Shown here: piece by piece, positions 3,895 to 64,000 of the stretch
Numbering within the stretch: the first letter of the stretch is position 1
Layout: every line of letters starts with the position of its first letter
Virus record (IMG/VR): IMGVR_UViG_3300045988_173726
Coordinates: 32,001 to 96,000 of that record
DNA from: a virus
Direction: 5' to 3' (one strand)
Length of the DNA stretch: 64,000 bases
The notes under the pieces: model-generated
What the model saw: the letters and a program-made list of their open reading frames with translations, nothing else
What the model was told of the DNA's origin: nothing
The model's database searches: none
Translations under genes and position numbers: made by a program

Positions 3895-5094
3895 ATGGTC
3901 TATAGATTTAGCGAGATGCTTGGCGATGAGGTTTATAAGAATCGGGTGATATTCCTGTTAGGGGAGCATTCGTTCTTTAATAACATAGTCATTGACAGAG
4001 TTAGGGACATTGCGATTCCGAGGGAAGAGGTAAATGCAGAGCAAGTTCTGGATTTAATGTCGGAGTTCGGTGTAACTTCGGATAAAGAGGTTTCTCGCGG
4101 AAACAGTGTAGGGTTTGATGAGTTTCTGGACAGTACGAGTAGCTATCCGATGCGAGGTTTCTGGTATTGTAGCGTAGAGTATTCAGAGCTAACGGATAAA
4201 CAGAGGGAGCGGCTTGGTGTTTATATGAAGTCACCGCAGGAGACTGGGTATCTGGTTATAACGGTCAAGGACTTTCGGAAGCATAGGGAAATTCTTCGTA
4301 ATAATCTGGTAGCTAGGGGTTCGAGCGTTTGTGCGGTGCGACTTAGCTTTCCAGATAGAGCGTCATTAACAGAGATAGTCAAGGGGAAGCTAAGTGACGG
4401 CGGGGTTAAAGTAGACGAGAGAGGCATACAGCTATTTATTTTGCGCTTAAGTAACGCTTATAACGAGTATAGTGACTGCCTATCATCTATTATCACAATG
4501 TATTCTGGGAAGAGCATCGGGTATGGAGAGGTGCTTGATGCGTTACAGGGGACAGAGAATTACGCGGTAGATGATTTTGTTTATGCTTTGTTAAATCCGA
4601 TGGGAAGCGGAAAGGTTATAAAGCGCAGGAAGATATATCGGATTTACGGGAGCTTGATACAGAGTATGAGCGCGGAGAGGCTTCTTAATACGCTGTTAAA
4701 TAAGATTGACATTTTTATTTCGTTTCGTAGGCTTATCAACAACGGAGATTTGCCCGTGTCTGTAGCGTATAGCGCAACAGAAGTGCAGGATAAGCTTCCA
4801 GAGGATAGCCGTCTAAAGACATATAGTGCCTATGTGTTTAAGCGTATGGCACGGATAGCGTCTATGGCATCTCTTGGGGACTGGCTCAATATGCGGCTAA
4901 TGCTTAGTGAGGCAAAGAGGTCGGGGAAGATAGGGCTTGAGGATAGGTGTGAGAAGGCGCTGTTTTCCATGATGCATCGTAGCGTGCTTGGGGACGAGCG
5001 GTTTTTTAATGATTCGGGGTTTATAAGCACTGTGGGGGATGGTGAGCTTTATAGCCTAAATACGGTATTCTTTCGAGTAACTAGCAGTTTCTAA
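3895..5094 (+). CDS. DNA polymerase III delta (HolA)-like clamp-loader subunit; 3' end interrupted by TnpB-like element copy 1
   Basis: 399-aa ORF. The layout VIFLLGEHSFF...YLVITVKDF...VCAVRLSFPDRASLTEIV...GVKVDERGIQLFILRL...VDDFVYALL parallels HolA by eye. The last 5 codons and the stop (5077-5094) are supplied by the element's left end. Confidence 0.45.
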   Translation: MVYRFSEMLGDEVYKNRVIFLLGEHSFFNNIVIDRVRDIAIPREEVNAEQVLDLMSEFGVTSDKEVSRGNSVGFDEFLDSTSSYPMRGFWYCSVEYSELTDKQRERLGVYMKSPQETGYLVITVKDFRKHREILRNNLVARGSSVCAVRLSFPDRASLTEIVKGKLSDGGVKVDERGIQLFILRLSNAYNEYSDCLSSIITMYSGKSIGYGEVLDALQGTENYAVDDFVYALLNPMGSGKVIKRRKIYRIYGSLIQSMSAERLLNTLLNKIDIFISFRRLINNGDLPVSVAYSATEVQDKLPEDSRLKTYSAYVFKRMARIASMASLGDWLNMRLMLSEAKRSGKIGLEDRCEKALFSMMHRSVLGDERFFNDSGFISTVGDGELYSLNTVFFRVTSSF

Positions 5095-5173
5095 CAATGT
5101 AGAAGAAGCAGGAATTATTTTTCGATTTTCTATGTGTTAGTTAAGGTTTTCATTAGGAGCGTGGTGAGTTGTA

Positions 5174-6505
5174 ATGCAGAAACTAAAGTTGACTATAGTA
5201 GCACAGCTACACGAGTGGAGTAACCGATGTTTAATTGAATATATGGAAGCTTCTCGTAGAGATTACGGTAAAGCATTGCGAGAAGCTTTCTACGCAATAA
5301 AACGAGGAGGAATAGATAAGTCAAAGTACAACACATACCTCCAGTATAAATACGGAATTTCTAATCGAACTGCAAATTCTATCATTCTTGACGCTCAAGG
5401 ACGATTTAACGCCCTAAAGGAGTTAAAGGAGTATGAAAGGAAGCAGTTAGAAAGAAAAATTAAGTATCTTGAAAACACAGTCATTCCTAAGTTAGTTGAG
5501 AAAAGGAAGCAGAACTCAATTAAGCTTCAAGACGGAGTATCTGTTTCGTTGGTTCAACAACGGAATCTACGGTTAAGAGTAGTTTCAAAGAAGGCTAAAC
5601 TAAACAGGTTGAAGCAGAAGCTTGCGGTGTTAAAGTATCAATTAGAAACAGGAAGGTTAAAGCTTTGTTTTGGAACGACAAGGTTGCTCAAGCAAGACCA
5701 TGATAAGTTTATTGAACATCGAGATAGTCAAATGACTTTCATAGGAGATAAAGAGAAAACAGCATGTAATCAAGTTTTACAGTTGACCTACAATCGAAGA
5801 AGCAATCAGTTTTTGATTCGACTGCGAAAAGATTTCGGAGGATACAAGTCTGCTAAAGGTGACAATAGATATGCTTACGGTAGAGCTTATTTCAATCATC
5901 ATAAGGCACAGCTTGTTTCAATTTTAAGGTTTAAGACCAGTCCTCTATCTTATAGGATAATCAAGAGGAATGGCAGATATTACCTATATTGTGTATTTGA
6001 GTTTCAAGTAAGGGATGGCGATGTAGTTACTCGTTCTTCTTATGGAACTATTGGATTAGATTTTAACAAAGGTTTTGTGACCTTATCAGAGACGAATCAG
6101 TACGGACATTTAGTAAAGACACAGTGTATGCCGTATCGTTTTAAGTCTGGAAACAAGACAAAGACTGACCTACAAGGAGTAGCAAATCATGTAGTTAAGC
6201 TAGCATTGCAGACAGGTAAAGATGTTTGCATAGAAAATTTAGATTTTAGAGTAACGAAATCTAAAACAGAAGCAAAAATGGGAAAGAAGTACAACGATAT
6301 GCTTCATTCTCTAGCATATCGTGAGTTTAGTGACACGATGGAGCGTGTAACTTATAGACACAGAGTAGGATTAAACAAAGTCAACCCTGCATGGACATCA
6401 TGGCTGGCAGAGAAGATTTATTGCAAGCCTATGAAGTTGAATATACATACAGGAGCTTCATATGTAATAGCAAGGTGCGGGCAAGGATATAAGGACGCTG
6501 TGTAA
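5174..6505 (+). CDS. TnpB/Cas12-superfamily RuvC-fold protein lacking zinc ribbon and third catalytic Asp
   Basis: 443 aa. Motifs: GTIGLDFNKG (RuvC-I D), DVCIENLDF (RuvC-II E), KKYNDMLHSLAYREF...GLNKVNPAWTS (TnpB-type block). The C-terminus NIHTGASYVIARCGQGYKDAV has no CxxC pairs, and no D/E where HAD.NAA.NI is expected. Confidence 0.6.
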   Translation: MQKLKLTIVAQLHEWSNRCLIEYMEASRRDYGKALREAFYAIKRGGIDKSKYNTYLQYKYGISNRTANSIILDAQGRFNALKELKEYERKQLERKIKYLENTVIPKLVEKRKQNSIKLQDGVSVSLVQQRNLRLRVVSKKAKLNRLKQKLAVLKYQLETGRLKLCFGTTRLLKQDHDKFIEHRDSQMTFIGDKEKTACNQVLQLTYNRRSNQFLIRLRKDFGGYKSAKGDNRYAYGRAYFNHHKAQLVSILRFKTSPLSYRIIKRNGRYYLYCVFEFQVRDGDVVTRSSYGTIGLDFNKGFVTLSETNQYGHLVKTQCMPYRFKSGNKTKTDLQGVANHVVKLALQTGKDVCIENLDFRVTKSKTEAKMGKKYNDMLHSLAYREFSDTMERVTYRHRVGLNKVNPAWTSWLAEKIYCKPMKLNIHTGASYVIARCGQGYKDAV

Positions 6506-6529
6506 AGAGTGTTTCAAAGATAGCCTTAT

Positions 6530-6742
6530 CCTATATAGATGTATCAACGCAAGACAGTTGAGCATCTCCCTGTAGGATGAAGTTTAATAGAAGCTCTGAC
6601 AACAATTCTTATTGTGTGGCTACGGTCGAAATGAGATGAGTTAGGGTGGAATAGGTTAACCGTAAGACCTTGAGTTGTAAAACTCTAAAATTGAGCTAGA
6701 GATGTGAATTTCCTAATTTATTTTCTCATTTTCTAGTTACGG
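6530..6742 (+). ncRNA. Conserved structured RNA at element right end (omega-RNA/reRNA-like candidate), copy 1
   Basis: About 215 nt conserved with 29754-29970 and 63270-63481. Hairpins: AGATG/TCAAC...GTTGA/CATCT (6537-6567), ACAACAAT-TCTT-ATTGTGT (6599-6617) and GAGTT-GTAA-AACTC (6672-6685). Differences between copies fall in the loops. Confidence 0.6.
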
Positions 6743-6826
6743 TTTGAGCTAGCAGAGCTTCCGAAAGATGTAGTTGTTTATCGGGATGGAGTTCGTGTGG
6801 ACGATAAAGTGCTTACGTTTCAGTAA
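6743..6826 (+). other. Orphaned in-frame 3' segment (27 codons + stop) of the HolA-like gene
   Basis: Joining 5076 to 6743 keeps the frame: ...NTVFFR|FELAELPKDVVVYRDGVRVDDKVLTFQ*. The stop lies just before the SD of the next gene. Confidence 0.5.
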
Positions 6827-8573: not shown

Positions 8574-8634
8574 GGGGAGCTTATTATAAGGGGATAATAC
8601 GGGGCAGGGCTTTACTTTCGGAGGTATCGTATAT

Positions 8635-21881: not shown

Positions 21882-24866
21882 ATGGCAGATATAGTGATTA
21901 AGCGGACAGTGCCGCCAGAGGTGTATGCAATCGCTTTGGTAGTGGAGGGTAAGAAGGTAGTAGGGGTTCGGATGGTAGACGTGAGCCTAAAGCTCGGCTC
22001 GAAGGGGAGCTTGTTTGAATTTCCGCTTGGGGTTGTAGAGAAAGCTGTTCGGACGGACGCGAATCTGATACGGAATCTTGCATTTAACGGCAGTTTAAGG
22101 CTTATAAACGGAGACATACGGAAGTTTCCAGCGGTAGACAAGGCAGGAAAGCTACTTACGCCAGAGCGAGTTCATGTGTTAAATACGATTACGCAGGACG
22201 GACGGATAGTGGGGTATCGTATAGTAAATTATAAGGGCAAGACAGTTAGAGAGCGAGCGGATAAGGTAATTGCGGCGGTCGAGAAGTTTGGTTTATTAAA
22301 CGGAATCATACAGGAGAACAGCTACACGAAGGTCATCTCGGGGATAGAGCGTCCGATAGCGAATGTAGAGCTTTCAAAAGCGGCAGTGGCAGAGACAAAG
22401 AGCGGCAGTCGGAGGATAAGGGCGGCATCTTCGTTAGCTGAAAACGGGGTAGCTAGGAGAGAGGCTATTGATTTAGAGAATATTCTTGAGAAGAATGACG
22501 CATTTAAGTCATTAAACCACAGCCAAAAGACGGCTTTGCAGAAGTATTATATGTGGTATACGGTTGAGAAGTTTAACGGTTTGGCACAAGGAACAGTACT
22601 TGAAGCAAATCCTGTGAAGCTTGCAAAGCTTGCAGAGCTACGGGGTTATGACAAGTGGGTTTACGGTGGCTACATGGACTGTAGAGAAGTCGGAAAGGTT
22701 CATTGTGAGCTTGGTCATCCGTTGCGTCATGTGCATTATGCAAACGCGGTGGATAAGAGCGGGAAGGTCTTACGGACAATATGCTTTGGAGAGGATTGCT
22801 CGGCAGATTTTTTCAGTATTCCGAGGGAGAACATGGCAAAGCTTGCGAAAGTAAGACAGCAAGTATCTTCCGAGATAGACGAATTACTTGAAATCATGAA
22901 TAACCGAGACACAGCGAGCGAGGAAGATTTGCACCCCGTGCCTTTGTTTGAGAAGCTTGTATTTAGTCAGAAGGAAGCGGAGATAGTAAAGTTCTTCGGG
23001 CAGAAGTTAGGGACTAGTTTAATGGACTATAAAGCGACAGGGCTTCCGTTTCCGCAGAGTATGGTAGAGTTAGCTTGTCAGAAGATACAGGAAGAGGGTA
23101 GAGAGGGACTAAACTATCTCGGTAATGTAGCAAAGGAGTATCGAGACACGATAGAGCGGGTTTATGAGTCGCCGTACTATTACGGGATAATGACTGCCTT
23201 TAAGGATTATCTGAAATTCACGATGCAGAATACGATTGAAGGTAAATACCGCTACAATCCCTCTAAGAAGAACGACTACAACAAAGGCAAGGGCAGTTTT
23301 AGTAAGAAAGCCGTTTATGAGAGGCGGGTATTGCTGTATCGCTTTAGGGAGAGTTTAGGGGCTACGGCATTTACCTTTAAGGAGCTTGGTGAGTTACTGG
23401 GTATCTTTAAGACAAATCTCACACGGTCTGATGAAATCTGGGACGATTTTACGAAGGTTTGCGATAACATTTTACGCGAGAAGCCGTCTGACGAGGTTAA
23501 GAAGAAGTTAGTGCCTATTGTGCTTGCTTCAAGGCTTACAAGTAAGGTGTATAGAGCAAGGCTTTGTTCTTTGAAGCTTGACGGAGCTAGTCGGTATAGT
23601 TTCGGGATAACTGATTTTAAGAGTGTCTTTGATATAACTTCGATAGAGAATGTTGAGAGGTATGCAAAGTATTTAGCCGAGTCAACAGTGGCGTATCGAG
23701 AGGGTTTAGCAGAGTATAAGCGTTTATCTGGGGAGAAGCCCGTAGAGAAGCCTAGAGAGAGCCTAGGCGTTGCAGAGGCGAAGCGGCAGGGTCTTGAGAT
23801 AGTGAGCGGTTTAACGCGGATTTTGCCAGACTTAGATAAGCATATCGGGGCGGTGGTTTTTGATAGTCCAGAGGGTATTAAGCTTCAAGGAATAGACTAT
23901 GCAGGGGCAGAGAAAGAGGGCATGACGATTACGACAGAGAAGTTAGCTCTAGCCTATGCAATGACACCGAAGGGGAATAAGCTATACTTAAATTTAATCG
24001 CGAAGCTTAAGTTTATCACGGAGAACGAGAGCGAGTCAGCCTATGCAGTGAGTGAGGCGATGGTGCGTGTGAATCCAAAGAGCGGTGAGGCAGAGCCGCT
24101 TGAATTGAAGAGTTTAGGGGCAATTATCCTAGAGATAAATGAGGCTTGCGGGGTGTCGGAGCGTGCAAGAGAGCTTTTTAGCGCAGAGTATGCTACAGGG
24201 GAATACCTTGGAGCATTAAAGTGGCTCTTAGATAATCTTATCAACAGGAATCGACTCGGAAACGCAAGCACAGAGAGTGTAAAGGCTTTCTATAGCGCAT
24301 ATACAAAGGATTCTCTTACGGATAAGCACTACGAGGCGCTGTTTAGCGGTGATTCTTCTTCTTCTGGGGAAGCGGGAGCAGGAAGTAAGAAGTCTGACGA
24401 GGAGGTTCTTAAGGAGTATTCAAAGTCTCTTATCAAGGCGCTTCATGTGAAGAAAGGTAAGACGCAGGGATACAGTGTTTATCTGGTAAAGGGAAATCCG
24501 ATGATTGTAGCTTATAATCTGGATAATGATAATCGTTTAAGCGTCTTTACGGCGTTTTATAACCGTAAAAGATGGACTAGTAACATTTGGGACAGGGCAA
24601 AGCGTTGCGGGGACGCAGATTTAATATTCGGAGCGATGCTAAGTAGCGCTGTAAATGGAAAGGGCTTTGAGGATGCGCTAAAGCTGTTAAACGGAAAGAG
24701 GGCAGAAACGCTTAAACCTGTAGTGCTTGGTATGGTAACTGGCATCGAGGCTTTGAACGGTGGAATAGAGCCTATTAAGAGCAAGTATATGAGCGCAGAG
24801 GGAGATGAGATATTCAGTAAGGACGGAAATATCGACAACAAGGTTTACAAGGCGCTGTTAGAGTGA
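21882..24866 (+). CDS. Large hypothetical protein (994 aa), paralog-family N-terminus, His/Cys cluster
   Basis: Modules KKVVGVRMVDVSLKLG and GRIVGYRIVNYKGKTV. Possible metal site: HCELGHPLRHVHYA...CFGEDC. Confidence 0.7.
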   Translation: MADIVIKRTVPPEVYAIALVVEGKKVVGVRMVDVSLKLGSKGSLFEFPLGVVEKAVRTDANLIRNLAFNGSLRLINGDIRKFPAVDKAGKLLTPERVHVLNTITQDGRIVGYRIVNYKGKTVRERADKVIAAVEKFGLLNGIIQENSYTKVISGIERPIANVELSKAAVAETKSGSRRIRAASSLAENGVARREAIDLENILEKNDAFKSLNHSQKTALQKYYMWYTVEKFNGLAQGTVLEANPVKLAKLAELRGYDKWVYGGYMDCREVGKVHCELGHPLRHVHYANAVDKSGKVLRTICFGEDCSADFFSIPRENMAKLAKVRQQVSSEIDELLEIMNNRDTASEEDLHPVPLFEKLVFSQKEAEIVKFFGQKLGTSLMDYKATGLPFPQSMVELACQKIQEEGREGLNYLGNVAKEYRDTIERVYESPYYYGIMTAFKDYLKFTMQNTIEGKYRYNPSKKNDYNKGKGSFSKKAVYERRVLLYRFRESLGATAFTFKELGELLGIFKTNLTRSDEIWDDFTKVCDNILREKPSDEVKKKLVPIVLASRLTSKVYRARLCSLKLDGASRYSFGITDFKSVFDITSIENVERYAKYLAESTVAYREGLAEYKRLSGEKPVEKPRESLGVAEAKRQGLEIVSGLTRILPDLDKHIGAVVFDSPEGIKLQGIDYAGAEKEGMTITTEKLALAYAMTPKGNKLYLNLIAKLKFITENESESAYAVSEAMVRVNPKSGEAEPLELKSLGAIILEINEACGVSERARELFSAEYATGEYLGALKWLLDNLINRNRLGNASTESVKAFYSAYTKDSLTDKHYEALFSGDSSSSGEAGAGSKKSDEEVLKEYSKSLIKALHVKKGKTQGYSVYLVKGNPMIVAYNLDNDNRLSVFTAFYNRKRWTSNIWDRAKRCGDADLIFGAMLSSAVNGKGFEDALKLLNGKRAETLKPVVLGMVTGIEALNGGIEPIKSKYMSAEGDEIFSKDGNIDNKVYKALLE

Positions 24867-28296: not shown

Positions 28297-28412
28297 TTGG
28301 TAAGTCAGTGGTTTCAAACAATATAGAAGAAAGTTGAAATAATTCTCGATTTACATGTTTTTCATTAAGGATGGTTTTGTTAGGATATGTCGTATTGTGG
28401 AGAGGAATTGAA

Positions 28413-29744
28413 ATGTGTAGTAGAAAGTTTACAGTAGTGACTCAACTACATGAGAGGAATAACAGGGGTGTAATTGAATACATTGAATCTTCCCGTAGAG
28501 ATTACGGGAAAGCAATGCGAGAGACTTTCTATGCAATCAAGCGTGGTGGTTTCAATAAGTCACGGTATAAGACCTATCTTCAAAATAAATACAAAATTGT
28601 TAGTCGGACTGCTAATTCTATTGTTTTTGACGCACAAGGGCGCTTTAATGCTCTAAAGGAGTTGAAAGAGTATGAGAGGAAGCAGCTGGAACAGAAGATT
28701 AAACACCTTGAAGATATAGTCATTCCTAAGTTAGTGGAGAAAAGGAATCAGAATTCAATTAAACTTCAAGACGGATTATCTGTCTCGTTGATTCAACAAA
28801 GGAATCTAAGATTAAAGGTGGTATCAAAGAAAGCAAAGTTAAACAGGTTGAAGCAGAAACTAGCCACACTAGAGTACCAATTAAAATCTGGAAAATTAAA
28901 CATTTGTTTTGGTACGAAAAGACTGCTCAAGCGAAGTTACAAGAAGTTTAGCGAGCAAAGAGATAGTCAAATGAGTTTTGTAGGAGCTAGGGCGGAGACA
29001 GCATGTAACCAAGTTTTACAGTTGACTTACAATCGAAGGAGTAATCAGTTTTTGATTCGGTTGCGTAAAGATTTTGGAGGGTACAAGTCTGCTAAAGGTG
29101 ATGCTAGATACGCTTACGGAAAAGTTTATTTCAATTATCATAAAGCACAAATTGTCTCAATTTTGAGGTCTAAGGCTAGTCCTTTAAGCTACAGAATAAT
29201 CAAAAAGAATTCCAGATATTATCTCTGTTGTGCTTTCGAGTTTCAAGTAGATAACGGTGAAGTTGTTACTCGCTCTAGCTACGGAACTGTTGGATTAGAT
29301 TTTAACAAAGGTTTTGTGACCTTATCAGAGACTAATCAGTACGGACATTTAGTGCAAACACAGTTTATGCCTTATCGTTTCAAGTCTGGAAACAAGACTA
29401 AGACAGATTTACAGGTGGTATCAAATTATGTGATTAAATTAGCATTGAGAAAAGGTAAAGACGTTTGTATTGAGAATCTTGACTTTAGAGCAAAGAAGTC
29501 TAAGATAGAGGCAAAGGTAGGGAAGAAATACAATGAGATGCTTCATTCATTAGCTTATCAAGAGTTTATTGAGGTGATTGAGAGCGTAGCCTATAGAAAC
29601 AGAGTTGGCTTAAACAAAGTCAATCCTGCGTGGACATCATGGTTAGCAGAGAGGATTTACTGTAATCCCATGAAGCTAAATATACATACAGGGGCTTCAT
29701 ATGTAATAGCAAGGCGTGGACAGGGGTATAAAGACGCGGCGTAA
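28413..29744 (+). CDS. TnpB/Cas12-superfamily RuvC-fold protein, paralog 2
   Basis: ORF 28371..29744 trimmed to ATG 28413, giving 443 aa colinear with copy 1. It has the same GLDFNKG, CIENLDF, NPAWTS and NIHTGASYVIARRGQGYKDAA motifs. Confidence 0.6.
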   Translation: MCSRKFTVVTQLHERNNRGVIEYIESSRRDYGKAMRETFYAIKRGGFNKSRYKTYLQNKYKIVSRTANSIVFDAQGRFNALKELKEYERKQLEQKIKHLEDIVIPKLVEKRNQNSIKLQDGLSVSLIQQRNLRLKVVSKKAKLNRLKQKLATLEYQLKSGKLNICFGTKRLLKRSYKKFSEQRDSQMSFVGARAETACNQVLQLTYNRRSNQFLIRLRKDFGGYKSAKGDARYAYGKVYFNYHKAQIVSILRSKASPLSYRIIKKNSRYYLCCAFEFQVDNGEVVTRSSYGTVGLDFNKGFVTLSETNQYGHLVQTQFMPYRFKSGNKTKTDLQVVSNYVIKLALRKGKDVCIENLDFRAKKSKIEAKVGKKYNEMLHSLAYQEFIEVIESVAYRNRVGLNKVNPAWTSWLAERIYCNPMKLNIHTGASYVIARRGQGYKDAA

Positions 29745-29753
29745 AGTTTTTAA

Positions 29754-29970
29754 CAGTCCTATACAGATGTATTCAACGCAAGACAGTTGAGCATCTCCCT
29801 TTAGGGCTAAGTTTATTATCAGAAGTTTTGACAACAATTCTCATTGTGTGGCTACGGTCGAAATGAGATGAGTCAGAGTGGAGTAGGTTAACCGTAAGAC
29901 CTTGAGTTGAAAAACTCTAAAATTGAGCTAGAGATGTGGATTTCTTAATTTTCGTGTTTTCTAGTTACGG
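29754..29970 (+). ncRNA. Conserved structured RNA at element right end, copy 2
   Basis: Aligns with 6530-6742. The hairpin GAGTT-GAAA-AACTC (29904-29917) carries a different GNRA loop from copy 1. Confidence 0.6.
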
Positions 29971-30052
29971 TCGAGGGAAGTAGTGTCGGCGGCGAGCGTA
30001 CCGGTGGGTTTAACAGCACTGTAGATAGATAAGAGAGGGAAGCGAGGTAGAG

Positions 30053-39905: not shown

Positions 39906-41021
39906 ATGGGAAGTATAAATCTATATAATCGCATCAGAGCGTTTATTCATGTTCCTAACTCGCTTGGCGAGCATGATTATCCGTTATATAAGCGTGCAGT
40001 AAAGAAGATGGACGGCAGTGATAACTATGTCGATACGGATGAGCATGACTGGGAGAGTGCGGCGGCACGGGATAAGGAGTGGTCGAGTCAGATAGGTGCG
40101 ACCTACAGTTCTCCGAGGAATGTAAGGCGTTTGTTTATCGGAGTGAACACTGTTGTGGTGCATTTCTGGTCGCCTATCGTAAAGAACGGGGTGCAGGGGA
40201 GTAGCCTTGTGTTAAAGCAGAGGTATCGGGATAGGATAGAGGCGAGTGAGCTAGGTGCGATAGTGCTTCACGGGGAGAGCGATAAGCATAAGGTGACAGG
40301 GGGTCGATGCGGGCTAGAGTCCTTAAAGCAGTGGTCTTTGCGGAACTTAGAGGAGTTGTATTTCGACTGGACAGCAGTGTATCGGGCAGGAAGTGCAAAG
40401 AATGATTTCTTTAACATAGCGATAGCGAATGTTTATCGGTCGAAGAAGATAGGAAACTATGCTCCGTTTAAGGAAGCGGTAGCAAAGTTGATTTCGAGGA
40501 ACGGTAATCTGGATAAGGACTATCCTAGGCTAAAGCGGGTAATGCTAATTGCGAATCTTGATAAGTATATCGAGGACGGGGCGGCGTATACGGGTAGCGG
40601 CGTAGATAGTGTAGAGAAGCTTGCGGATGACTGGGGGTATGACAGCGCGTTTGAGGGGTATATCGGGGCAGACGGCGTGAATCGTCATGGTTTATGCGAG
40701 ACTTTTGGTTTGTCGCCTAACATATACGAGTTCGACCAGCTATATTTGCTTGACAAAGTTAGAGATATTATGCGAAGTATCTCAAAGGCGAAGCAGGAAG
40801 CGAGGTCTACAGCGGGTTTATCTGAAAGCGCGGGGGAAAGCGCTATCGGAGAGTTTGAGCAGGCGGTTTTAATGCTAAAGAATTATACGGATGACAAGAC
40901 GATAGCGAAGATATTAAGCCATCTGGGGGATAACGACGCAGGGGAGCTTAGAAATGAGCTATTGACCGTCACAAAGGAAAATCAAGGCTGGTTTGAGAAT
41001 CTTTTGAGGAGTGCGAAATGA
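39906..41021 (+). CDS. Hypothetical protein
   Basis: 371-aa ORF with TAGGAGGTGG SD. Confidence 0.7.
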   Translation: MGSINLYNRIRAFIHVPNSLGEHDYPLYKRAVKKMDGSDNYVDTDEHDWESAAARDKEWSSQIGATYSSPRNVRRLFIGVNTVVVHFWSPIVKNGVQGSSLVLKQRYRDRIEASELGAIVLHGESDKHKVTGGRCGLESLKQWSLRNLEELYFDWTAVYRAGSAKNDFFNIAIANVYRSKKIGNYAPFKEAVAKLISRNGNLDKDYPRLKRVMLIANLDKYIEDGAAYTGSGVDSVEKLADDWGYDSAFEGYIGADGVNRHGLCETFGLSPNIYEFDQLYLLDKVRDIMRSISKAKQEARSTAGLSESAGESAIGEFEQAVLMLKNYTDDKTIAKILSHLGDNDAGELRNELLTVTKENQGWFENLLRSAK

Positions 41022-44000
41022 CGAACAAGAAGATATTAGCCTTATACGGGTATTTATTGCAGGATAGAGGGAAGTTAGAGGATTTGTGGAAAGCCCTAGA
41101 TAGGGTTGACGAGTGCGATGACGATGATATTCTAAGGGTTTTACAGAATAAAGACCTGTGCCGCATAGTGAGCGTGCTTGCGGGGGATAAGTTTAGCGGT
41201 TCAGTGAGTGGCGACATAAGTTTAGCTGACTTAGAGCAGGTCATTTCATATGTAAAGGACGAGTTAGACGAGGATTCGGACGATATAGATATAGACGAAG
41301 ATGAGGACGAGGGGGAAGAGGAAGATTACGAGGAGGACGAGGATTCGGACGAAGAGGACGGGGAAGCGGAGAGCAATTCCGTAACAGAGCAGTCCCACGA
41401 AGTCCCGCACGACACGGCGAGTTTATCAGAGAGTGATAAGGACGAGTTAGCACAGTCTGTGGTAGAGGCTTGTAAGAGCAGTATAGATAATGCGGTTACG
41501 GAGATTTATAAGGTCTATACTTCTATGTTCAAGTCTGGATATGGAGTTATTCAGCCAGAGGGAATACTGGCTGGGCAAAAGAGCGGTAGTATGATTAAGT
41601 TTCAACCGCTTGATTATGAGCATTTAATGCTTGTGCCTCGGAACTACTATTCCGACACATGGGAGTTATTAAAGCAGGAGCTTGGGTTAAAGGAGAGTAC
41701 GAAGCGGACTATTACTTACGGCGAGATACGGGACGGGTATAACTATTTCCCGTTTAAGATAATAGAGCTTGTATTCGGAAGATACTTGTCTAAAGAGTCA
41801 GATATAGCGGGCAAGCGCTATTGTAAATCGTCTGCGAGTGTGTCTTGGGAGTCGTATTGGGAGCAGGATGTAAAGCATAATATCGAGAGATATATCCGAA
41901 ACATCGTAACGGAGTATATAAAATCGTTAGCGGCGAATGAGAAGCTGGATATAAATAACTTGTCCAGTGTTTATGGGGCGGTTCGGCAGTTAGCGAACAA
42001 GACGATTCTGGCATATACGCCTGCGATTGTGATTTGCGAGGATTCTGGCGGTAGGTTTAAGATAAGGTTTTCGGATTACGCGCATAGGATAGACGCGACT
42101 CGGCTAAAGCGCATAGAGAAAAAGATTTTAGGGTGGGTAGGAACAAAAGAGGTCGAGTTAGACAGAGCATCTTTCTCATTGATGCGAGATAACGACAGCA
42201 TAAAAGAGATAGAGGTCGTAAGGGACAAGAGTTTATGCGGGACAGTCCCGTTATTTAGCTATATTGCGCTTAGAAAGTTAAGAGAGCAGGGTAAGCGTCC
42301 GTCCTATCAGAATTTGATATTAGGTCGCGCAGAGGACGACAGTATTTATATCGGCAACAGCAAGGATACGCCTTTTGGTGGCTTTAATACGGCTATAGGG
42401 TCGTTTGTCCTGCACTTGTCGGCGGGTTCTCGTTCTGGTAAAGGTGTTATGACGCTGAATATGATTGCGTCAGCGCTTGCTTCAAATGTAGCCGTGCCGT
42501 ATTTAGACAGTAAGCCAGATATGTCGTCTTTGCTTTTGTATATTGCGAAGAAGCTCGGGGTAAAGACCTTTGCGTTAAACGGTGGCTCGGAGTATGACAG
42601 TAAAGCGGATATAGGCGGGGTAGTTCGGGAGGTAATGTCGAGGGAGGTTTATCGGAAGCCCGCAGGACTTGAAGATTTAGCTGTGCCAGAGACAGCGTGG
42701 AGTGCGCTTAAGTATATAAAGGCTTTGGATTTCTGGATTTGGCTTTCTCCGAAGATTCAGTCTGGTGAGATAAAGACGAAGAGCGGGGATTTGTTAATCA
42801 TAGCGGACGAAGTTTGGCGTATGATAACGGGTTGGGCGCCTTTGTATGCAGAGTTGTTTGCGAAGAAGAGTGAGAGAGTTCGGAAGGGCGAGGATGACAC
42901 AGCGGTAGAGAGTGCGAAGTGGCTGTATAACTGGTATATGCGGGCGATGGGAAGCTGGCTTGCGGCGAAGGACGCTACGCTAAAGAACATAAAGCCGAAG
43001 TTAATGCTTATATATCAAGAGCATATAACGCCGTCATGGTCGTCTATGAGTAGCACAGAGTATAACGGAATCAACAAAGCGAATGCGTTTATCTTTAGGA
43101 CGCTTGAGAATATGGGTAAGCGCGGGTTTATAGGATATGACGAAGCGTCTATAGCCTACGGAGGTGTTTTACCTACCACTAAAATCCCGAATAAGTCAGA
43201 CTTTATCCAGCCTGTTTTAACAACTACAAAGGGAAAGAAGTTTTGTAATGTGAATGACAGGTATTTTGCGTGGGTAGATGATGTAGATTCGCAGGGCGTG
43301 AACGGGGATAGCACGACAGCGCAGTTTATAAAGCCGTTTTTGATTTTGAATGACGCAGACGAGAACGGGACATTTGTCCAGCAGTTAAAGGGGCAGTTAA
43401 AGAACTCGGTCGGAACGGACGAGAAGGTAGAGGAAATCATGAAGCAGTTCCGTGATAAGAACGGAAAGCTTGAGGAGTCTATCGGATTCGAGGGATATCT
43501 CCGTGAGATGACAGCTGACATGGAGGGATATAGCCTCGGGGAAGCGTTTAATGAGAGTTATCGTATTTTTGAAGAGGTGATAACGAAGTTTGGCTACATG
43601 GAGGCATCGGGAGCGAGCGACCCGATGGAGTATTTCAGTGACTTCCGTGCAGAGTTTATGCCGAACTGGAGTAGGATGGACAGAGCGCTTGCGGGTGAGA
43701 AGTTAGGAAAGGACGGAAGCGGAAGCGAGGACGGTATAGACAGTGAGTATTCTGGTGTAGAGTTTACGGGGGACGAGGGAGAAAGTGCAGGAGTAGAGAG
43801 CTTAGGCGAGAACGAGAATACAGGCTTAGAGGGCTTAGGCGAAAGTGGAGCAAGTGCGAGCGAGGCGGTTTCCGAGGAACCCGTAAGAAATGCGGAAAAA
43901 CCTGCTGGAAGTGTATTTGATAGTCTAATGCAGGGCAGGGAGAGTAATCTTTCGGATGAGTTTATCGGGTTTATGCCAGAGGGAAGCGAGGAAAACGGAG

Positions 44001-45061
44001 CATTTTCGGCGGGTAGTGAAGATTTCTCGGAGAAGAGTGATGAGTTTGACAGTGAACCGCTTACAGAGAGCGGAGCGTTTAATCACGGAGATAGTTATAG
44101 TGGTTATTCTGGGCGCTCGGCAGAAAAAGAGCCGATAAATGTTCGTGAGTATGAGTCCTCGGTGGGGTATAGTAATGCAATAACTGACGGGTCGAAGCTT
44201 GAGAACGCAAAAGGCGTTACGATGGTGCAGGGTATAGAGCGTATAAAGGCAGATGTTTCTAGGCTTTCGCCAGAGAACAGCGTGGATTGCACAAATCTTT
44301 CGCTAGGCGGCTTGCTTAGTCACGCGCCGCTGTTTACGAGTACGAAGTTTGGGGCAGACATGTATCGCAGGGAAGTCCTAAACGGGGTATTAGACAGGAT
44401 AGACAGGAGCATAGGGCGAGGTAATGTAACGAAGATAATTCTTACGGCGAACGGAATGATAGTAAACAACAAGCTAGTGAACTTAAACGGAGTCATGGGC
44501 GGGAATACGGGTCGTTATCTCTCTGATTTCATATCGTTTAAGGAGTTAGCGAAGCGATATAGCAGTTTAGCGCGGATTGGAATGGATACGGAGTATTTGA
44601 ACGCATTTAGCCTAGAGTATTATATCGACCCTTCCGACACAGAGCGGCTACTTGGGAGTATTTTCGACACATTTAGAGTTTTGGGGGTGGTAAACATCAA
44701 CAATCACGACATAAGGCGGCAGGAATATCTTACGATGGCGCAGAGACAGCGGATGTCGGCAGAGATGGAAGCGGTAAAGCGAAATGTAGCTATGTATCGT
44801 GCGACCGAAGAGATAGGGGCAGAGTTAAGCGCGAACGCGAGGATAAAGCCAGAGGATGAGGGCAGTCGGATGCGTAGGTTTACGCGGGCATTGCCGTTTA
44901 TGAGTAAGGCAGAGAGAGGACAGCGAAGCGGTAGAGGCAGTGGAATCGGTGGACTCATCGGAGCGGCGGTCTTTGGAGCGGCGTTTGGAATCGGGAAGCT
45001 CGGACGGGCAATCATTTCTGGGATACAGGAAGGTTCGGCAAAGAAGCATTACGGAAAGTAA
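41018..45061 (+). CDS. Giant P-loop NTPase (TraG/VirD4- or FtsK/HerA-like translocase signature) with poly-acidic N-terminal tract
   Basis: 1347 aa. Walker A-like HLSAGSRSGKGVMTLN; Walker B-like LLIIADEVW; acidic run DEDSDDIDIDEDEDEGEEEDYEEDEDSDEEDGE; Gly-rich hydrophobic C-terminus. Confidence 0.4.
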   Translation: MTNKKILALYGYLLQDRGKLEDLWKALDRVDECDDDDILRVLQNKDLCRIVSVLAGDKFSGSVSGDISLADLEQVISYVKDELDEDSDDIDIDEDEDEGEEEDYEEDEDSDEEDGEAESNSVTEQSHEVPHDTASLSESDKDELAQSVVEACKSSIDNAVTEIYKVYTSMFKSGYGVIQPEGILAGQKSGSMIKFQPLDYEHLMLVPRNYYSDTWELLKQELGLKESTKRTITYGEIRDGYNYFPFKIIELVFGRYLSKESDIAGKRYCKSSASVSWESYWEQDVKHNIERYIRNIVTEYIKSLAANEKLDINNLSSVYGAVRQLANKTILAYTPAIVICEDSGGRFKIRFSDYAHRIDATRLKRIEKKILGWVGTKEVELDRASFSLMRDNDSIKEIEVVRDKSLCGTVPLFSYIALRKLREQGKRPSYQNLILGRAEDDSIYIGNSKDTPFGGFNTAIGSFVLHLSAGSRSGKGVMTLNMIASALASNVAVPYLDSKPDMSSLLLYIAKKLGVKTFALNGGSEYDSKADIGGVVREVMSREVYRKPAGLEDLAVPETAWSALKYIKALDFWIWLSPKIQSGEIKTKSGDLLIIADEVWRMITGWAPLYAELFAKKSERVRKGEDDTAVESAKWLYNWYMRAMGSWLAAKDATLKNIKPKLMLIYQEHITPSWSSMSSTEYNGINKANAFIFRTLENMGKRGFIGYDEASIAYGGVLPTTKIPNKSDFIQPVLTTTKGKKFCNVNDRYFAWVDDVDSQGVNGDSTTAQFIKPFLILNDADENGTFVQQLKGQLKNSVGTDEKVEEIMKQFRDKNGKLEESIGFEGYLREMTADMEGYSLGEAFNESYRIFEEVITKFGYMEASGASDPMEYFSDFRAEFMPNWSRMDRALAGEKLGKDGSGSEDGIDSEYSGVEFTGDEGESAGVESLGENENTGLEGLGESGASASEAVSEEPVRNAEKPAGSVFDSLMQGRESNLSDEFIGFMPEGSEENGAFSAGSEDFSEKSDEFDSEPLTESGAFNHGDSYSGYSGRSAEKEPINVREYESSVGYSNAITDGSKLENAKGVTMVQGIERIKADVSRLSPENSVDCTNLSLGGLLSHAPLFTSTKFGADMYRREVLNGVLDRIDRSIGRGNVTKIILTANGMIVNNKLVNLNGVMGGNTGRYLSDFISFKELAKRYSSLARIGMDTEYLNAFSLEYYIDPSDTERLLGSIFDTFRVLGVVNINNHDIRRQEYLTMAQRQRMSAEMEAVKRNVAMYRATEEIGAELSANARIKPEDEGSRMRRFTRALPFMSKAERGQRSGRGSGIGGLIGAAVFGAAFGIGKLGRAIISGIQEGSAKKHYGK

Positions 45062-45110: not shown

Positions 45111-45187
45111 TAGTTTGGGGAGAATAGGGAGTTAGGTGATTTGGAAGTAAATGCGTGGAATAGTACAGAGTTGCTAGTAGATTATAA

Positions 45188-45235
45188 AGTAAAAGCTAGG
45201 CTATGTCTTTAGACGCACCAGAATGGCTTTTAAGG
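45188..45235 (+). repeat. 48-nt conserved non-coding repeat, copy a
   Basis: AGTAAAAGCTAGGCTATGTCTTTAGACGCACCAGAATGGCTTTTAAGG; the 3' half matches copy b perfectly. Confidence 0.6.
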
Positions 45236-45509
45236 CGTGTCTAGGTTTAGACGGACGCTTTTACAGGTTTTAGGTTTCTGCTTAGGATTAGGGGGTTTCT
45301 ATCGGCGCAGGACGGCTAAGAAAGGGGAATAGGGGGATTAGATGGGAGAGATAGAAACGGGCAGGGGGAGGGGCTTAAGTCGGCGGGACAGTACAGGGCG
45401 GGTAAGCTCTGGGTTTAGGGGTTTATTGGGCAAGGGGAAGCCCCGTAACGGGAGGAGGCAGTCGCCTAGGCAGGAGAGGGGTTTTGTAAGTTTAACAGTG
45501 AAATTGACA

Positions 45510-45557
45510 AGTAAAAGATAGACTATGCCCTGTGACGCACCAGAATGGCTTTTAAGG
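45510..45557 (+). repeat. 48-nt conserved non-coding repeat, copy b
   Basis: AGTAAAAGATAGACTATGCCCTGTGACGCACCAGAATGGCTTTTAAGG, preceded by TTGACA (45504-45509). Confidence 0.6.
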
Positions 45558-45739
45558 GGCATAATCGTTTAGGTGTAAAAGTGTATAGAGGTAAGAGACT
45601 TCCCTTTGAAATCCCTAATGAGTCGGCGGTTCAAAACGAGTGAAAACGGACGATAGAGGTGAGCGGGGGCTTGAGGCGGGGCAAAGTGGTATGGGGCTGT
45701 AGAGCGTTTACGGGGTAAACGGGAGATGCGGGTTTAGTG

Positions 45740-45786: not shown

Positions 45787-46569
45787 ATGAAGATTTTAGC
45801 AGGGTTAGTGGCACTAGTTGTCACGGCAGGGTGCATGATAGCGGTTGGGAAGGTGTCGGATAAAATATACCAAAGGAAGCACGCGCTAAAGATAAAGTTT
45901 ATCGCGGGAGCGTTGCGTCTTTTAATCGTAGCGGTGTTTATCTGCGCAGAGATGTATATATTTGGTGGCTCGGACGGGTTAGGCAGCAAGATACTCGGTG
46001 GTTCGACTTTGATTGTGGCAGTTTTAACCTTTACAGCGCAACAAGCATTGGGAAATATCATAAGCGGGTTTTCTATAAGTTTATCGAAGCCTATCGAGGT
46101 CGGACAGAAGGTTAAGATAGTGCAGGGGTCAAATATCATAGCAGAGGGGATAGTAAAGGATATGTCGGTTCGGCATATCATAATAACGACATTTGACGGG
46201 CAGAGCTGTATTGTGCCAAACAGCATAGTAGAGAACAGTGTGATATTGAATACGAATTACGAGAAGGATGTAGGTAATTTTGTAGAGTTTGAGGTGGGTT
46301 ACGGGACAGATATAGAGTTTGCGAAGGCTTTAATCGTGGCAGAGTGTTCAAAAGAGCCTTTAATCATTCGTCCTGTGAAGGTATCCGTAAATCGGTATAC
46401 AGCAAACGGGGTAGTGTTAAAGCTTACGATATGGACAGAGCATTTGGACGACAACTTTGCGATATGCGGGCGGCTTAGGGAGAGTATGTTAAAGCTGTTT
46501 ATAAGTTTCGGGATAGAGTTGCCGTATAATCATGTTACGGTAGGTAGACTAGGCGACACGGAGCGTTAG
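45787..46569 (+). CDS. mscS: MscS-family small-conductance mechanosensitive channel
   Basis: Three N-terminal TM helices, then FTAQQALGNIISGFSISLSKPIEVGQKVKI...GIVKDMSVRHIIITTFDGQSCIVPNS (pore helix plus beta-domain signature). Confidence 0.7.
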   Translation: MKILAGLVALVVTAGCMIAVGKVSDKIYQRKHALKIKFIAGALRLLIVAVFICAEMYIFGGSDGLGSKILGGSTLIVAVLTFTAQQALGNIISGFSISLSKPIEVGQKVKIVQGSNIIAEGIVKDMSVRHIIITTFDGQSCIVPNSIVENSVILNTNYEKDVGNFVEFEVGYGTDIEFAKALIVAECSKEPLIIRPVKVSVNRYTANGVVLKLTIWTEHLDDNFAICGRLRESMLKLFISFGIELPYNHVTVGRLGDTER

Positions 46570-48163: not shown

Positions 48164-48327
48164 CGCCTTTCCGAGCGTTTTTCCTTGGAAAGCTAAAGTG
48201 CGCTACACCTTGATGTTCTGCGAGCTTTCTTTTAATCAGAGTGGATTCCTTGTATTGGAGCGAGTACACAGGTATTTCGTCCTATAAATTTTATTACTAA
48301 TTTTATGCTTATTTGGAGGTATGAGTT

Positions 48328-53245: not shown

Positions 53246-53663
53246 GTATTGGAGACGGCTTAATCGTAGCGGGCTTCTTTGCTATCGTTGGACAGGTTTT
53301 GCGGAGTTTGCGGCTTGGTCGGAAGCGAACGGCTATCGTCCTTGGAGATTGCTCCATCGTAAAGACAAGAATGCGCTTTATAGCCCAGAAAACTGTTTCT
53401 GGGCTAGTTCCGTCCCAAGGAGTGAACCTGTTGTAAAGTGCGCAAGCTATGAAAAGACGGTTCGTATGCTCGGGCTTTATGACGTGCTGTTAGCAGAGAT
53501 TACAGAGGATGCAAAGCGAGCAGAGGCATGTTTAGAGGCTCTGTCCGAATCGGATTGGGTGAGTAGCAAAGATACTGCGCTTAAGCTTAAGAAAGAGGTG
53601 CAGTTGCTTATGCGGCGGGTTTCAGAAATCCGTTTAACTGCCCTTTATGACAAAGAGAAATAA
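53232..53663 (+). CDS. Phage DNA-binding-type protein with Y-x-P-x-N-C-x-W motif
   Basis: ORF 53220..53663 trimmed to ATG 53232. FAEFAAWSEANGYRPWRLLHRKDKNALYSPENCFWAS resembles the ...GY...L.R.D....Y.P.NC.W segment seen in many phage HNH-associated/DNA-binding proteins. Confidence 0.35.
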   Translation: MRLNEYWRRLNRSGLLCYRWTGFAEFAAWSEANGYRPWRLLHRKDKNALYSPENCFWASSVPRSEPVVKCASYEKTVRMLGLYDVLLAEITEDAKRAEACLEALSESDWVSSKDTALKLKKEVQLLMRRVSEIRLTALYDKEK

Positions 53664-55629: not shown

Positions 55630-55754
55630 ACTCAAGTTTCTCTGTTAGAGAGCAGTATAAACTCAAGTTTCGGCTATATGCGGTTGCGGCTCTGCTTCGG
55701 CGGTAACAGGGGTCTTGTCCCGCAGAAAATCTGTGGAAAGAGAAAGAAAGTTTC
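55627..55754 (+). repeat. Mini-array of the AAGTTTC motif upstream of the helicase gene
   Basis: TAAACTCAAGTTTC at 55627 and 55658 (31 bp apart). GAAAGAAAGTTTC at 55742, followed by GGGGTATACC and then the ATG. Confidence 0.6.
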
Positions 55755-63197: not shown

Positions 63198-63481
63198 GTA
63201 AACTAGCAGTTTCCAACAATGTAGAAGAAACAGGAATTATTCTCGACTTTATACATTTTATTTAGTAAGCAGTCCTATACAGATGTATTCAACGCAAGAC
63301 AGTTGAGCATCTCCCTTTAGGGCTAAGTTTATCAGAAGCCTTGACAACAATTTTCATTGTGTGGCTACGGTTGAAATGAGATGAGTTAGGGTGGAATAGG
63401 TTAACCGTAAGACCTTGAGTTGCAAAACTCTAAAATTGAGCTAGAGTATGGATTTTTCAAGTTTCGTATTTCTAGTTACGG
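63198..63481 (+). mobile_element. ORF-less miniature derivative of the TnpB-like element (left end fused directly to the RNA/right-end module)
   Basis: 63198-63269 aligns with the left ends of copies 1-3 (GTAAACTAGCAGTTTCCAACAATGTAGAAGAAACAGGAATTATTCTCGA...). 63270-63481 aligns with the 3' RNA module. There is no tnpB-like ORF between them. Confidence 0.7.
63270..63481 (+). ncRNA. Conserved structured RNA module, orphan copy
   Basis: Aligns with 6530-6742 and 29754-29970. The hairpin GAGTT-GCAA-AACTC (63417-63430) carries a third GNRA loop variant. Ends in TTCTAGTTACGG. Confidence 0.6.
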
Positions 63482-63507
63482 TATCAGTCGAAGGACAAGT
63501 AGGAAGA

Positions 63508-64000
63508 GTAATCGACAGTTTCTAACAATGCGGAAGAAGCAGGAATTATTTCTCGATTTTCTATGTTGTTTTAGTTAGCTAAGGTTATTTCATTAGGGGC
63601 GCAGGGTGGTGAGGTGTAATGCAGAAACTAAAGTTGACTACAGTAGCACAGCTACATGAGGGGAGTAACCGATGTTTAATTGAATATATGGAATCTTCTC
63701 GTAGCGATTACGGAAAAGCATTGCGAGAGACTTTCTATGCAATCAAGCGAGGAGGAGTAAATAAGTCAAAGTACAACACATATCTCCAGTATAAATACGG
63801 AATTTCTAGTCGGACTGCAAATTCTATCATTTATGACGCACAAGGACGCTTTAATGCTCTTAAGGAGTTAAAAGGGCATGAAAGGAAGCAGTTGGAGAGA
63901 AAAATTAAGTATATTGAGAGTGTAGTTATTCCAAAGCTAGTTGAGAAAAGGAATCAGAACTCAGCTAAAATTCAAGACGGAGCATATGTGTTGCTGGGTC
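63508..64000 (+). mobile_element. TnpB-like element copy 3 (partial, runs off the window)
   Basis: The left end GTAATCGACAGTTTCTAACAATGCGGAAGAAGCAGGAATTATTTCTCGATTTTC lies 26 nt after the miniature element's right end. Confidence 0.7.
63619..64000 (+). CDS. TnpB/Cas12-superfamily protein, paralog 3 (N-terminal 127 codons only)
   Basis: My translation MQKLKLTTVAQLHEGSNRCLIEYMESSRSDYGKALRETFYAIKRGG... is colinear with copies 1 and 2. It is open to the window end. Confidence 0.6.
   Translation, partial: MQKLKLTTVAQLHEGSNRCLIEYMESSRSDYGKALRETFYAIKRGGVNKSKYNTYLQYKYGISSRTANSIIYDAQGRFNALKELKGHERKQLERKIKYIESVVIPKLVEKRNQNSAKIQDGAYVLLG

Follow-up and report, generated by a model that had tools for sequence, protein, structure and literature searches.

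Putative IS607-type elements of a large gut phage encode a TnpB-like protein with an Asp-Glu-His RuvC site and a predicted right-end guide RNA

In the IS607 element that has been studied, the serine recombinase TnpA(Ser) has TGGG as its target with GG as the core, TGGG is also the transposon-adjacent motif (TAM) of TnpB, and the nuclease of TnpB is needed for homing (PMC10690162). Altae-Tran et al. (PNAS 2023; PMC10691335) described five major TnpB clades. In the parts of that paper drawn on here, the branch RIIIr-4 is characterized by a His in place of the RuvC-III Asp and by the absence of the C4 zinc finger, it is specifically represented in viruses, and its enzymes are argued to be active from the conserved substitution. 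TldRs, which are tied to non-transposon genes, were mined by at least two mutated catalytic residues (PMC10705468). We analysed 64,000 nucleotides (nt) of virus DNA (positions 32,001 to 96,000 of IMG/VR record IMGVR_UViG_3300045988_173726; this whole stretch is called the window in the following). The window harbors four copies of an element of about 1.66 kb, of which two are complete, one is partial and one is gene-less. The element encodes a TnpB-like protein of 443 amino acids (aa) and, at its right end, a predicted guide (omega) RNA. The original prediction, made from the sequence of the window, had named three paralogous open reading frames (ORFs; 5174-6505, a second one ending at 29744 and a third one starting at 63619), and all three are present. 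The novelty that it implied was overstated, since a change of Asp to His, a missing C4 zinc finger and occurrence in viruses make up the published definition of RIIIr-4, as given in those parts of the 2023 paper (PMC10691335). These defining features suggest that the protein is to be assigned to RIIIr-4. It is probably a member of a TnpB clade catalogued in 2023, paired with an RNA family that is already in Rfam (RF03065), and because both the features and the RNA family had been described, the finding is one of a catalogued kind.

Database searches revealed little about the 443-aa protein. No transposase domain was detected by Pfam, searches of Pfam, PHROGs and PADLOC yielded no relevant match, and neither a search of the PDB with the single sequence nor a tblastn search against deposited phage genomes gave a match. 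The NCBIfam models guided_TnpB (NF040570; E 4.7e-9) and TIGR01766 matched partially, over residues 327-409 only and below their curated cut-offs. The best PDB sequence match of the protein was a Cas12m, and the database name of one family member is 'hypothetical protein [Caudoviricetes sp.]'. When 1.84 billion cluster representatives were scanned with HMMER, 1329 relatives (clusters at 50% identity) were found at E ≤ 0.001. An AlphaFold2 model built from an alignment of 109 diverse members was confident throughout, with a predicted local distance difference test (pLDDT) score of 96 and a predicted template modelling (pTM) score of 0.89. The model shows an N-terminal strand, a helical REC part with a long coiled coil (residues 64-159), WED strands and, starting near residue 287, a RuvC domain that is RNase-H-like. 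AsCas12f was the top Foldseek match (E 2.5e-8, template modelling score 0.52); Cas12k, Cas12m2, the TnpB of ISFba1 and Fanzor2 were also matched, as were viral TnpB-like proteins. According to the model, the protein has the bilobed WED-REC-RuvC fold of TnpB and Cas12 proteins. The TnpB/Cas12 layout that had been proposed is thus borne out by the model and the Foldseek matches, while the NCBIfam profile match is partial.

The protein ends at about the position where canonical TnpB continues into the zinc ribbon, and standard models miss it, as described above. Both points would fit truncated tnpB pseudogenes that hitch-hike in the phage as decaying relics. The data on selection and conservation refute this explanation, which we regard as hardly conceivable. 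The TnpB-like gene is under strong purifying selection: the ratio of nonsynonymous to synonymous substitution rates (dN/dS) was 0.11 between copies 1 and 2, at a synonymous divergence (dS) of about 1.08, and 0.12-0.14 in comparison to copies in related phages (all full-length comparisons). All 35 near-full-length copies in the loci that we fetched had intact D, E and H motifs and no stop codons. For most of the best-matching representatives the alignment extends to their very C-terminus, and relatives of only 22-60% identity have the C-terminal motif as well. The confident structural model and the covariation in the RNA (see below) also speak against a relic.

Residues D296 (in GLDFN) and E354 (in IENLDF) are 58 residues apart, and NPAWTS follows at 404-409. 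In an hhalign comparison to an alignment of ISDra2-type TnpB proteins, D296 was paired with D191, E354 with E278 and NPAWTS with SPYFPSS. Canonical TnpB proteins continue after this TS motif with CxxC...CxxC and then (R/A)D-x-N-A-A-x-N-I. In the family described here, the TS motif is followed by a 15-residue helix and then by H-x-[AGS]-A-[AS]-x-x-I-A-R-R-G, with only 15 residues between the motif and H425. A CxxC pair at the ribbon position just after the TS motif was absent from all 107 representatives examined. The ungapped HMMER alignment to a solved TnpB (9nzp_A) placed nvHqaAayvIARr against NADRNASFNIARS, with H425 on the catalytic Asp, and H425-x-x-A428-x-x-x-I432 has the same register as D361-x-x-A364-x-x-x-I368 of canonical TnpB. 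Where canonical TnpB has a D-E-D triad, D296 and E354 are present and the third (RuvC-III) position appears to be taken by H425. The two acidic motifs with their spacing, the TS block and the lack of a Cys pair behind it had all been seen correctly in the original prediction. It was also right that no carboxylate occupies the third position; the Gly that it had placed there is two residues off, and H425 is in register instead.

Conservation of these residues was very high among the 109 representatives, whose identity is as low as 22%: D296 is found in 108/109, E354 in 109/109 and H425 in 108/109, and the position following H425 varies freely. Near the C-terminus, at D441, an acidic residue (D or E) is kept in 91 of the 96 sequences long enough to cover it, which makes it a candidate for a compensating carboxylate. 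That D, E and H are nearly invariant in so diverse a family argues that the pocket is in use, and leaves the purpose of this use unsaid.

One such use would be that of a nuclease-dead, RNA-guided binder similar to TldR, Cas12k or Cas12m2, which represses or marks the guide-matched site while the D-E-H pocket holds the displaced strand via one metal ion. The lack of the third carboxylate and of the entire zinc-finger/TNB domain fits such a role, and the His-containing triad of Cas12m2 is conserved for DNA binding and not for cleavage (PMC10442227). A Cas12m is also the top PDB sequence match, and the coiled-coil REC insertion at 64-159 resembles REC2 of Cas12m2. We nevertheless consider a dead binder unlikely. 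TldRs are defined by at least two mutated residues (PMC10705468), but here there is one substitution, to a His that is nearly fixed across the 109 diverse representatives. Unlike TldRs, the elements have kept their transposon ends, are accompanied by a transposase in relatives and occupy many polymorphic insertion sites, with 32 different flanks. Furthermore, the guides match only their own flank within the window, and no promoter elsewhere. The invariance of D-E-H and the existence of at least 32 distinct insertion sites lead us to prefer a functional, if non-canonical, site to a dead binder of the TldR type. Both readings had been offered by the original prediction; the non-canonical active site fits better, and the dead binder gained no specific support.

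Searching the window with RF03065 (IS605-orfB-I) gave three full-length matches (model positions 1-214) at 6528-6746, 29756-29974 and 63272-63485, with scores of 197, 192 and 189 bits at a gathering score of 94.2. Wherever a related locus encodes a protein at least 51% identical to that of copy 1, RF03065 also follows the gene (120-197 bits). An alignment of 11 copies of the RNA contained 54 consensus pairs, and compensatory double changes were observed in 31 of them. The stem ACCGTA/TTACGG closes the RNA scaffold exactly at the element end, and conservation stops after GTTACGG(T). The right end appears to have the anatomy of a TnpB omega RNA, for which the adjoining flank would serve as the guide, in agreement with the cognate guide RNA that had been expected directly downstream of the gene. 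Within the window each guide matches its own flank only, and the guide of copy 1 has no second match there.

The omega RNA of about 215 nt is located entirely downstream of the stop codon of the tnpB-like gene, unlike in ISDra2, and its needs for 5' processing therefore differ from those of ISDra2. This bears on a second alternative, in which catalysis by the D-E-H site is restricted: it would act only on its own transcript (3' processing of the omega RNA), nick, or cut single-stranded DNA, and the element would be kept up by nick- or fork-stimulated recombination. The invariant pocket residues at a non-canonical site are in line with this, the RuvC domain of TnpB is able to process its own RNA (PMC10278001; also PMC10705468), and Altae-Tran et al., in the parts drawn on here, propose an altered substrate specificity for rearranged sites (PMC10691335). 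The processing needs that set the RNA apart from that of ISDra2 count against it, and the one IS607 element tested needed the nuclease for homing (PMC10690162). We regard restricted catalysis as quite unlikely.

We also looked for the partner transposase in related loci. In a locus from Moraxella (L018), an ORF of 239 aa with HTH_17 and resolvase domains overlaps the start of the TnpB-like gene. Loci from Enterococcus (L014) and from a member of the Bacillota (L015) have a pseudogenised serine-recombinase gene beside the TnpB-like gene. A viral contig (L025) and a gut contig (L057) carry an intact TnpA(Ser) gene, followed by the TnpB-like gene and RF03065, and in L057 the design of the left and right ends is the same as in the window copies. 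The original statement that the window lacks a Y1/HUH tnpA gene is true but beside the point. The Y1/HUH partner that it expected is replaced by the serine recombinase of IS607: all five of these related loci have a serine recombinase as the neighbor, in intact or decayed form, with the flanks of the other loci not screened for Y1. The right end terminates in GTTACGG. The left flank terminates in GG in 10/12 copies and in AG in 2/12, mostly as GGG, and the base following either GG is mostly T (28/32 on the right side). Terminal inverted repeats were not reported by repeat finding. The elements can be placed in the IS607 family, and would be mobilised by a serine recombinase, because relatives show the order tnpA(Ser)-tnpB-RF03065; the GG ends and the lack of inverted repeats agree with this. 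We hold the identity of the elements and of the protein, as proposed here, to be highly probable. An IStron with a group I intron was also considered and rejected, as Rfam finds only RF03065 in the window.

Mobility of the elements was evident from the comparison of filled and empty sites in relatives, which also supports the earlier view of a unit that moves and is present in multiple copies. Copy 1 is missing from five related IMG/VR contigs of about 260 kb with flanks 92-97% identical to those in the window, and copy 2 is missing from four related contigs. In L008, the sites of copy 3 and of the gene-less copy are both empty. The reverse holds for 8577-8593 and 53297-53401, where the window is unoccupied and relatives carry a copy. 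When metagenomes were scanned with a 20-mer of the RNA, 53 loci were recovered; many of the contigs come, by their names, from human-gut metagenome assemblies. Among the 41 right-end copies in all sequences gathered we counted 32 different guides, and thus at least 32 insertion sites. Gene-less copies account for 2 of the 12 copies with a findable left end, the second one being located in L062. As a further observation, a 69%-identical copy of the element lies inside a dense tRNA array with nine tRNA matches (L013:1-2690); the contig is binned as Carnobacterium and is probably another phage fragment.

In all five comparisons of filled and empty sites (L001-L008, L020-L024), 11-490 nt of adjoining phage DNA was gone. 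At the site of copy 1, 186 nt including the 5' part of a small ORF was replaced. About 11 nt was replaced at the site of the gene-less element, 105 nt at the filled 53297-53401 site, and 14-17 nt between two GGGG runs at the filled 8577-8593 site. The largest loss was found at the site of copy 2 (28297-29971), where about 490 nt with a dUTPase-like gene was replaced. The contigs L021-L024 carry this gene of about 160 aa (MAKFYVARK...AAGADFF...; L021:4774-5259) at the place of copy 2, and the window phage has lost this gene copy entirely. In L020, the left junction is the same as for copy 2 and the right junction is different, with 243 nt of the dUTPase-like gene retained at the right end. The adjoining losses may be secondary deletions. 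L020 represents an intermediate state, and the window lineage has therefore undergone at least one further deletion flush with the right end, which changed the guide. Possible causes are that the recombinase acted in cis on other G-rich sites, that self-targeting was repaired by end joining, or that compensating deletions were selected under headful packaging. Strict crossover at GG was rejected as the cause, since a GG is correctly placed in the empty allele at only 2 of 6 right junctions.

The losses would have a different meaning if the D-E-H TnpB bound or nicked the guide-matched site without a double-strand cut and spread the element by recruiting the serine transposase or by provoking recombination or deletions. 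We consider such non-cutting homing very unlikely. If it did occur, the losses of 11-490 nt and the stepwise deletions at the right end that rewrite the guide would be its footprints, and a non-cutting TnpB would provide a natural RNA-guided transposon homing route in phages.

Overall, we favour as the probable explanation that the copies are non-autonomous IS607-type units with an RNA-guided D-E-H TnpB that are maintained by cut-and-copy homing, which was shown experimentally for other IS607 elements. TnpA(Ser), acting in trans, would bring the units into G-rich sites (...GG(T)) not occupied before. TnpB with its RNA would then recognise a GG(T) motif together with a guide match in unoccupied alleles, and the D-E-H RuvC site would cut them, possibly assisted by the conserved acidic D441. 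Recombination with an occupied genome, for example that of a co-infecting phage, would copy the element in, and the gene-less copy would depend on protein supplied in trans. For the D-E-H site itself we lean, by a little, towards cutting of DNA.

Several points weigh against this explanation. The third RuvC position has no carboxylate, and in canonical TnpB the mutation of any triad residue abolishes cleavage (PMC10705468). The His-containing triad of Cas12m2 holds one Mg2+ only and supports DNA binding without cleavage (PMC10442227). The protein lacks the TNB/zinc-finger domain. This domain is kept by canonical TnpB and by most Cas12 proteins. H425 and D441 are placed in the pocket by sequence register only; since hhalign with the C-terminal 30-50 residues alone was not significant, the register of H425 relies on the ungapped HMMER alignment and on motif spacing. 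The loss of adjoining DNA conflicts with the scarless insertion predicted for IS607 elements, and the filled sites do not represent simple insertions. The 64 kb window itself yielded no serine recombinase, and the window copies are therefore non-autonomous. Finally, our literature searches found no biochemical test or activity data for RIIIr-4 or for members of the family.

The coordinates of the element copies and of the two empty sites are listed in Table 1.

Table 1. Element copies, their parts and unoccupied insertion sites in the window
Feature	Position	Strand	Description
Element copy 1	5078..6742	+	Left end, tnpB-like gene, guide-RNA right end; predicted non-autonomous IS607-type unit
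Left end / 5' untranslated region of copy 1	5078..5173	+	From repeat finding and alignment
TnpB-like gene, copy 1	5174..6505	+	443 aa; D296/E354/H425; without zinc ribbon
Omega (guide) RNA scaffold, copy 1	6528..6742	+	Rfam RF03065, 197 bits; terminal stem ACCGTA/TTACGG
Predicted guide, copy 1	6743..6765	+	Conservation between copies ends after GTTACGG(T); the first base, T, possibly belongs to the element
Element copy 2	28301..29970	+	Gene 28413-29744; omega RNA 29756-29970; guide from 29971
Gene-less mini-element (solo)	63199..63481	+	Left end joined straight to complete omega RNA 63272-63481; guide from 63482
Element copy 3	63509..64000	+	Gene from 63619; cut by the window end
Unoccupied site	8577..8593	.	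Filled in related phage (L004/L010/L012)
Unoccupied site	53297..53401	.	Filled in related phage (L006/L011)

Repeat finding and a four-way alignment showed that each gene is framed by a left end of about 60 nt and a right end of about 180-230 nt, both conserved, and that the flanks are unrelated. Conserved ends with unrelated flanks had been predicted for the unit, and its earlier limits of 5077-6742 for copy 1 were essentially right and needed a shift by one position at the left end. The limits of copy 1 were set where homology to the five related phage contigs is lost (5078) and where it comes back (6742/6743). Its left flank terminates in GAG, and the element itself starts with TAAC and terminates in GTTACGG. 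The right boundary is exact in all cases and the start of the left end is ragged. In one related copy (L007:2386-2420) the start of the left end is duplicated, with GTTTCTAACAGT followed by GTTTCTAACAATG, which suggests slippage or repeated recombination at the left junction. CTAGCAG occurs in copy 1 within the left end as well as in the guide, and was rejected as a target-site duplication, because it is absent on the left in the related empty sites and the other copies do not have it.

Between copies 1 and 2, protein identity is 79%, in agreement with the high similarity noted originally for the two complete 443-aa copies, and DNA identity is also 79%. The ORF of copy 2 ends at 29744 and may start at 28371 or 28413; the alignment to copy 1 favours the ATG at 28413, giving 443 aa. 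The ORF of copy 3 comprises 127 codons without a stop before the window ends. The gene-less element was not listed in the original prediction and is located 27 nt upstream of copy 3. At the empty 8577-8593 site, the window matches the first 16 nt of the guide of the copy in L004/L010/L012, and GGGG precedes the match. We also considered that the protein might continue past its stop codon. This was rejected, as no plus-strand ORF of at least 40 aa begins within 6505-6774 and longer family members still lack Cys pairs. The ORF upstream of copy 1 (3895-5094, 399 aa) takes its last four codons and its stop codon from the left end of the element (junction 5075-5094). It ends with ...FFRVTSSF* in the window and with ...FFRV* in the relatives, and the insertion thus added four codons to a phage gene.

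The phage nature of the window is apparent from matches to DNA polymerase, helicase and tail proteins. Related contigs are 214-268 kb in size, and the window therefore comes from a very large gut phage; the host of the elements is a human-gut phage of about 260 kb. All 22 ORFs of at least 330 aa are on the plus strand, no tRNA genes were found in the window, and several of its largest proteins (e.g., 21882-24866 and 41018-45061) have no PHROG match. Outside the elements, a 13-nt motif, GAAAG-N-AAGTTTC, occurs in 20 copies with at most one mismatch (0.57 expected by chance) at 46569-48164 and 55742-55754. Of these, 19 are found within about 1.6 kb, nearly all on the plus strand and often in pairs 32 nt apart, and the region 46570-48300 has only one ORF of at least 60 aa, which itself is 60 aa long. 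This looks like an array of iterons or protein-binding sites, which may serve the phage as a replication origin or as a promoter array. Just upstream of the array there are two direct repeats of 64 nt (45187-45250 and 45509-45572), which are 80% identical and 322 nt apart.

Routine annotation largely misses the family; its members are labelled hypothetical and lack a Pfam transposase domain. If a D-E-H site without zinc finger cuts DNA, the notion of a working RuvC site widens, and an RNA-guided enzyme of about 440 aa with a fully intergenic, well-defined guide RNA would be at hand. If it does not cut, a mobile and multiplying 'dead' TnpB needs a new explanation. The set of related phages, with autonomous, non-autonomous and RNA-only forms and with natural filled and empty sites, represents a handy test bed.

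Among known systems, RIIIr-4 shares all three of its features with the protein described here: H425 is present in 108/109 representatives and in 35/35 local copies, the zinc finger is lacking and the occurrence is viral. The parts of the paper drawn on here highlight an archaeal subgroup associated with RHH/MazE, whereas the units described here are mobile and occur in phages and Bacillota. The link to RF03065, the serine-recombinase partner and the GG ends were worked out in the present analysis. In Rfam, RF03065 is described as a small RNA associated with IS605 orfB. In the present case it goes with an IS607-type element and behaves as its omega RNA, and the scaffold stops at the right end of the element. 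The IStron of Clostridium botulinum (PMC10690162) resembles the elements in the order tnpA(Ser)-tnpB-omega RNA seen in the autonomous relatives, in the GG core at both junctions, in a left flank (..GGG) similar to the TGGG target and TAM, in the lack of inverted repeats and in the guide taken from the right flank. The elements differ from it in that they have no group I intron, in their TnpB without zinc finger and with His at RuvC-III, in the lack of tnpA in the window copies and in the loss of adjoining DNA at insertions. With the TnpB of ISDra2 the protein shares the WED-REC-RuvC layout, the register of the RuvC-I Asp and the RuvC-II Glu, the ...P-x-x-T/S-S strand and the guide RNA at the right end. 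However, identity is only about 10%, the REC part is about 100 residues larger and contains the coiled coil, the zinc ribbon is missing, H425 stands for D361, the omega RNA does not overlap the ORF and the partner is a serine and not a Y1 transposase. TldR, Cas12k and Cas12m2 also have an altered RuvC triad, some TldRs have lost the C-terminal zinc-finger/RuvC part, and Cas12m2 has a His-containing site together with a coiled-coil REC2. These binders are immobilised, with ties to host genes, CRISPR arrays or Tn7 machinery, and the active sites of TldRs decay variably, while in the family described here the variant triad is fixed, one residue off D-E-D, and the element is mobile.

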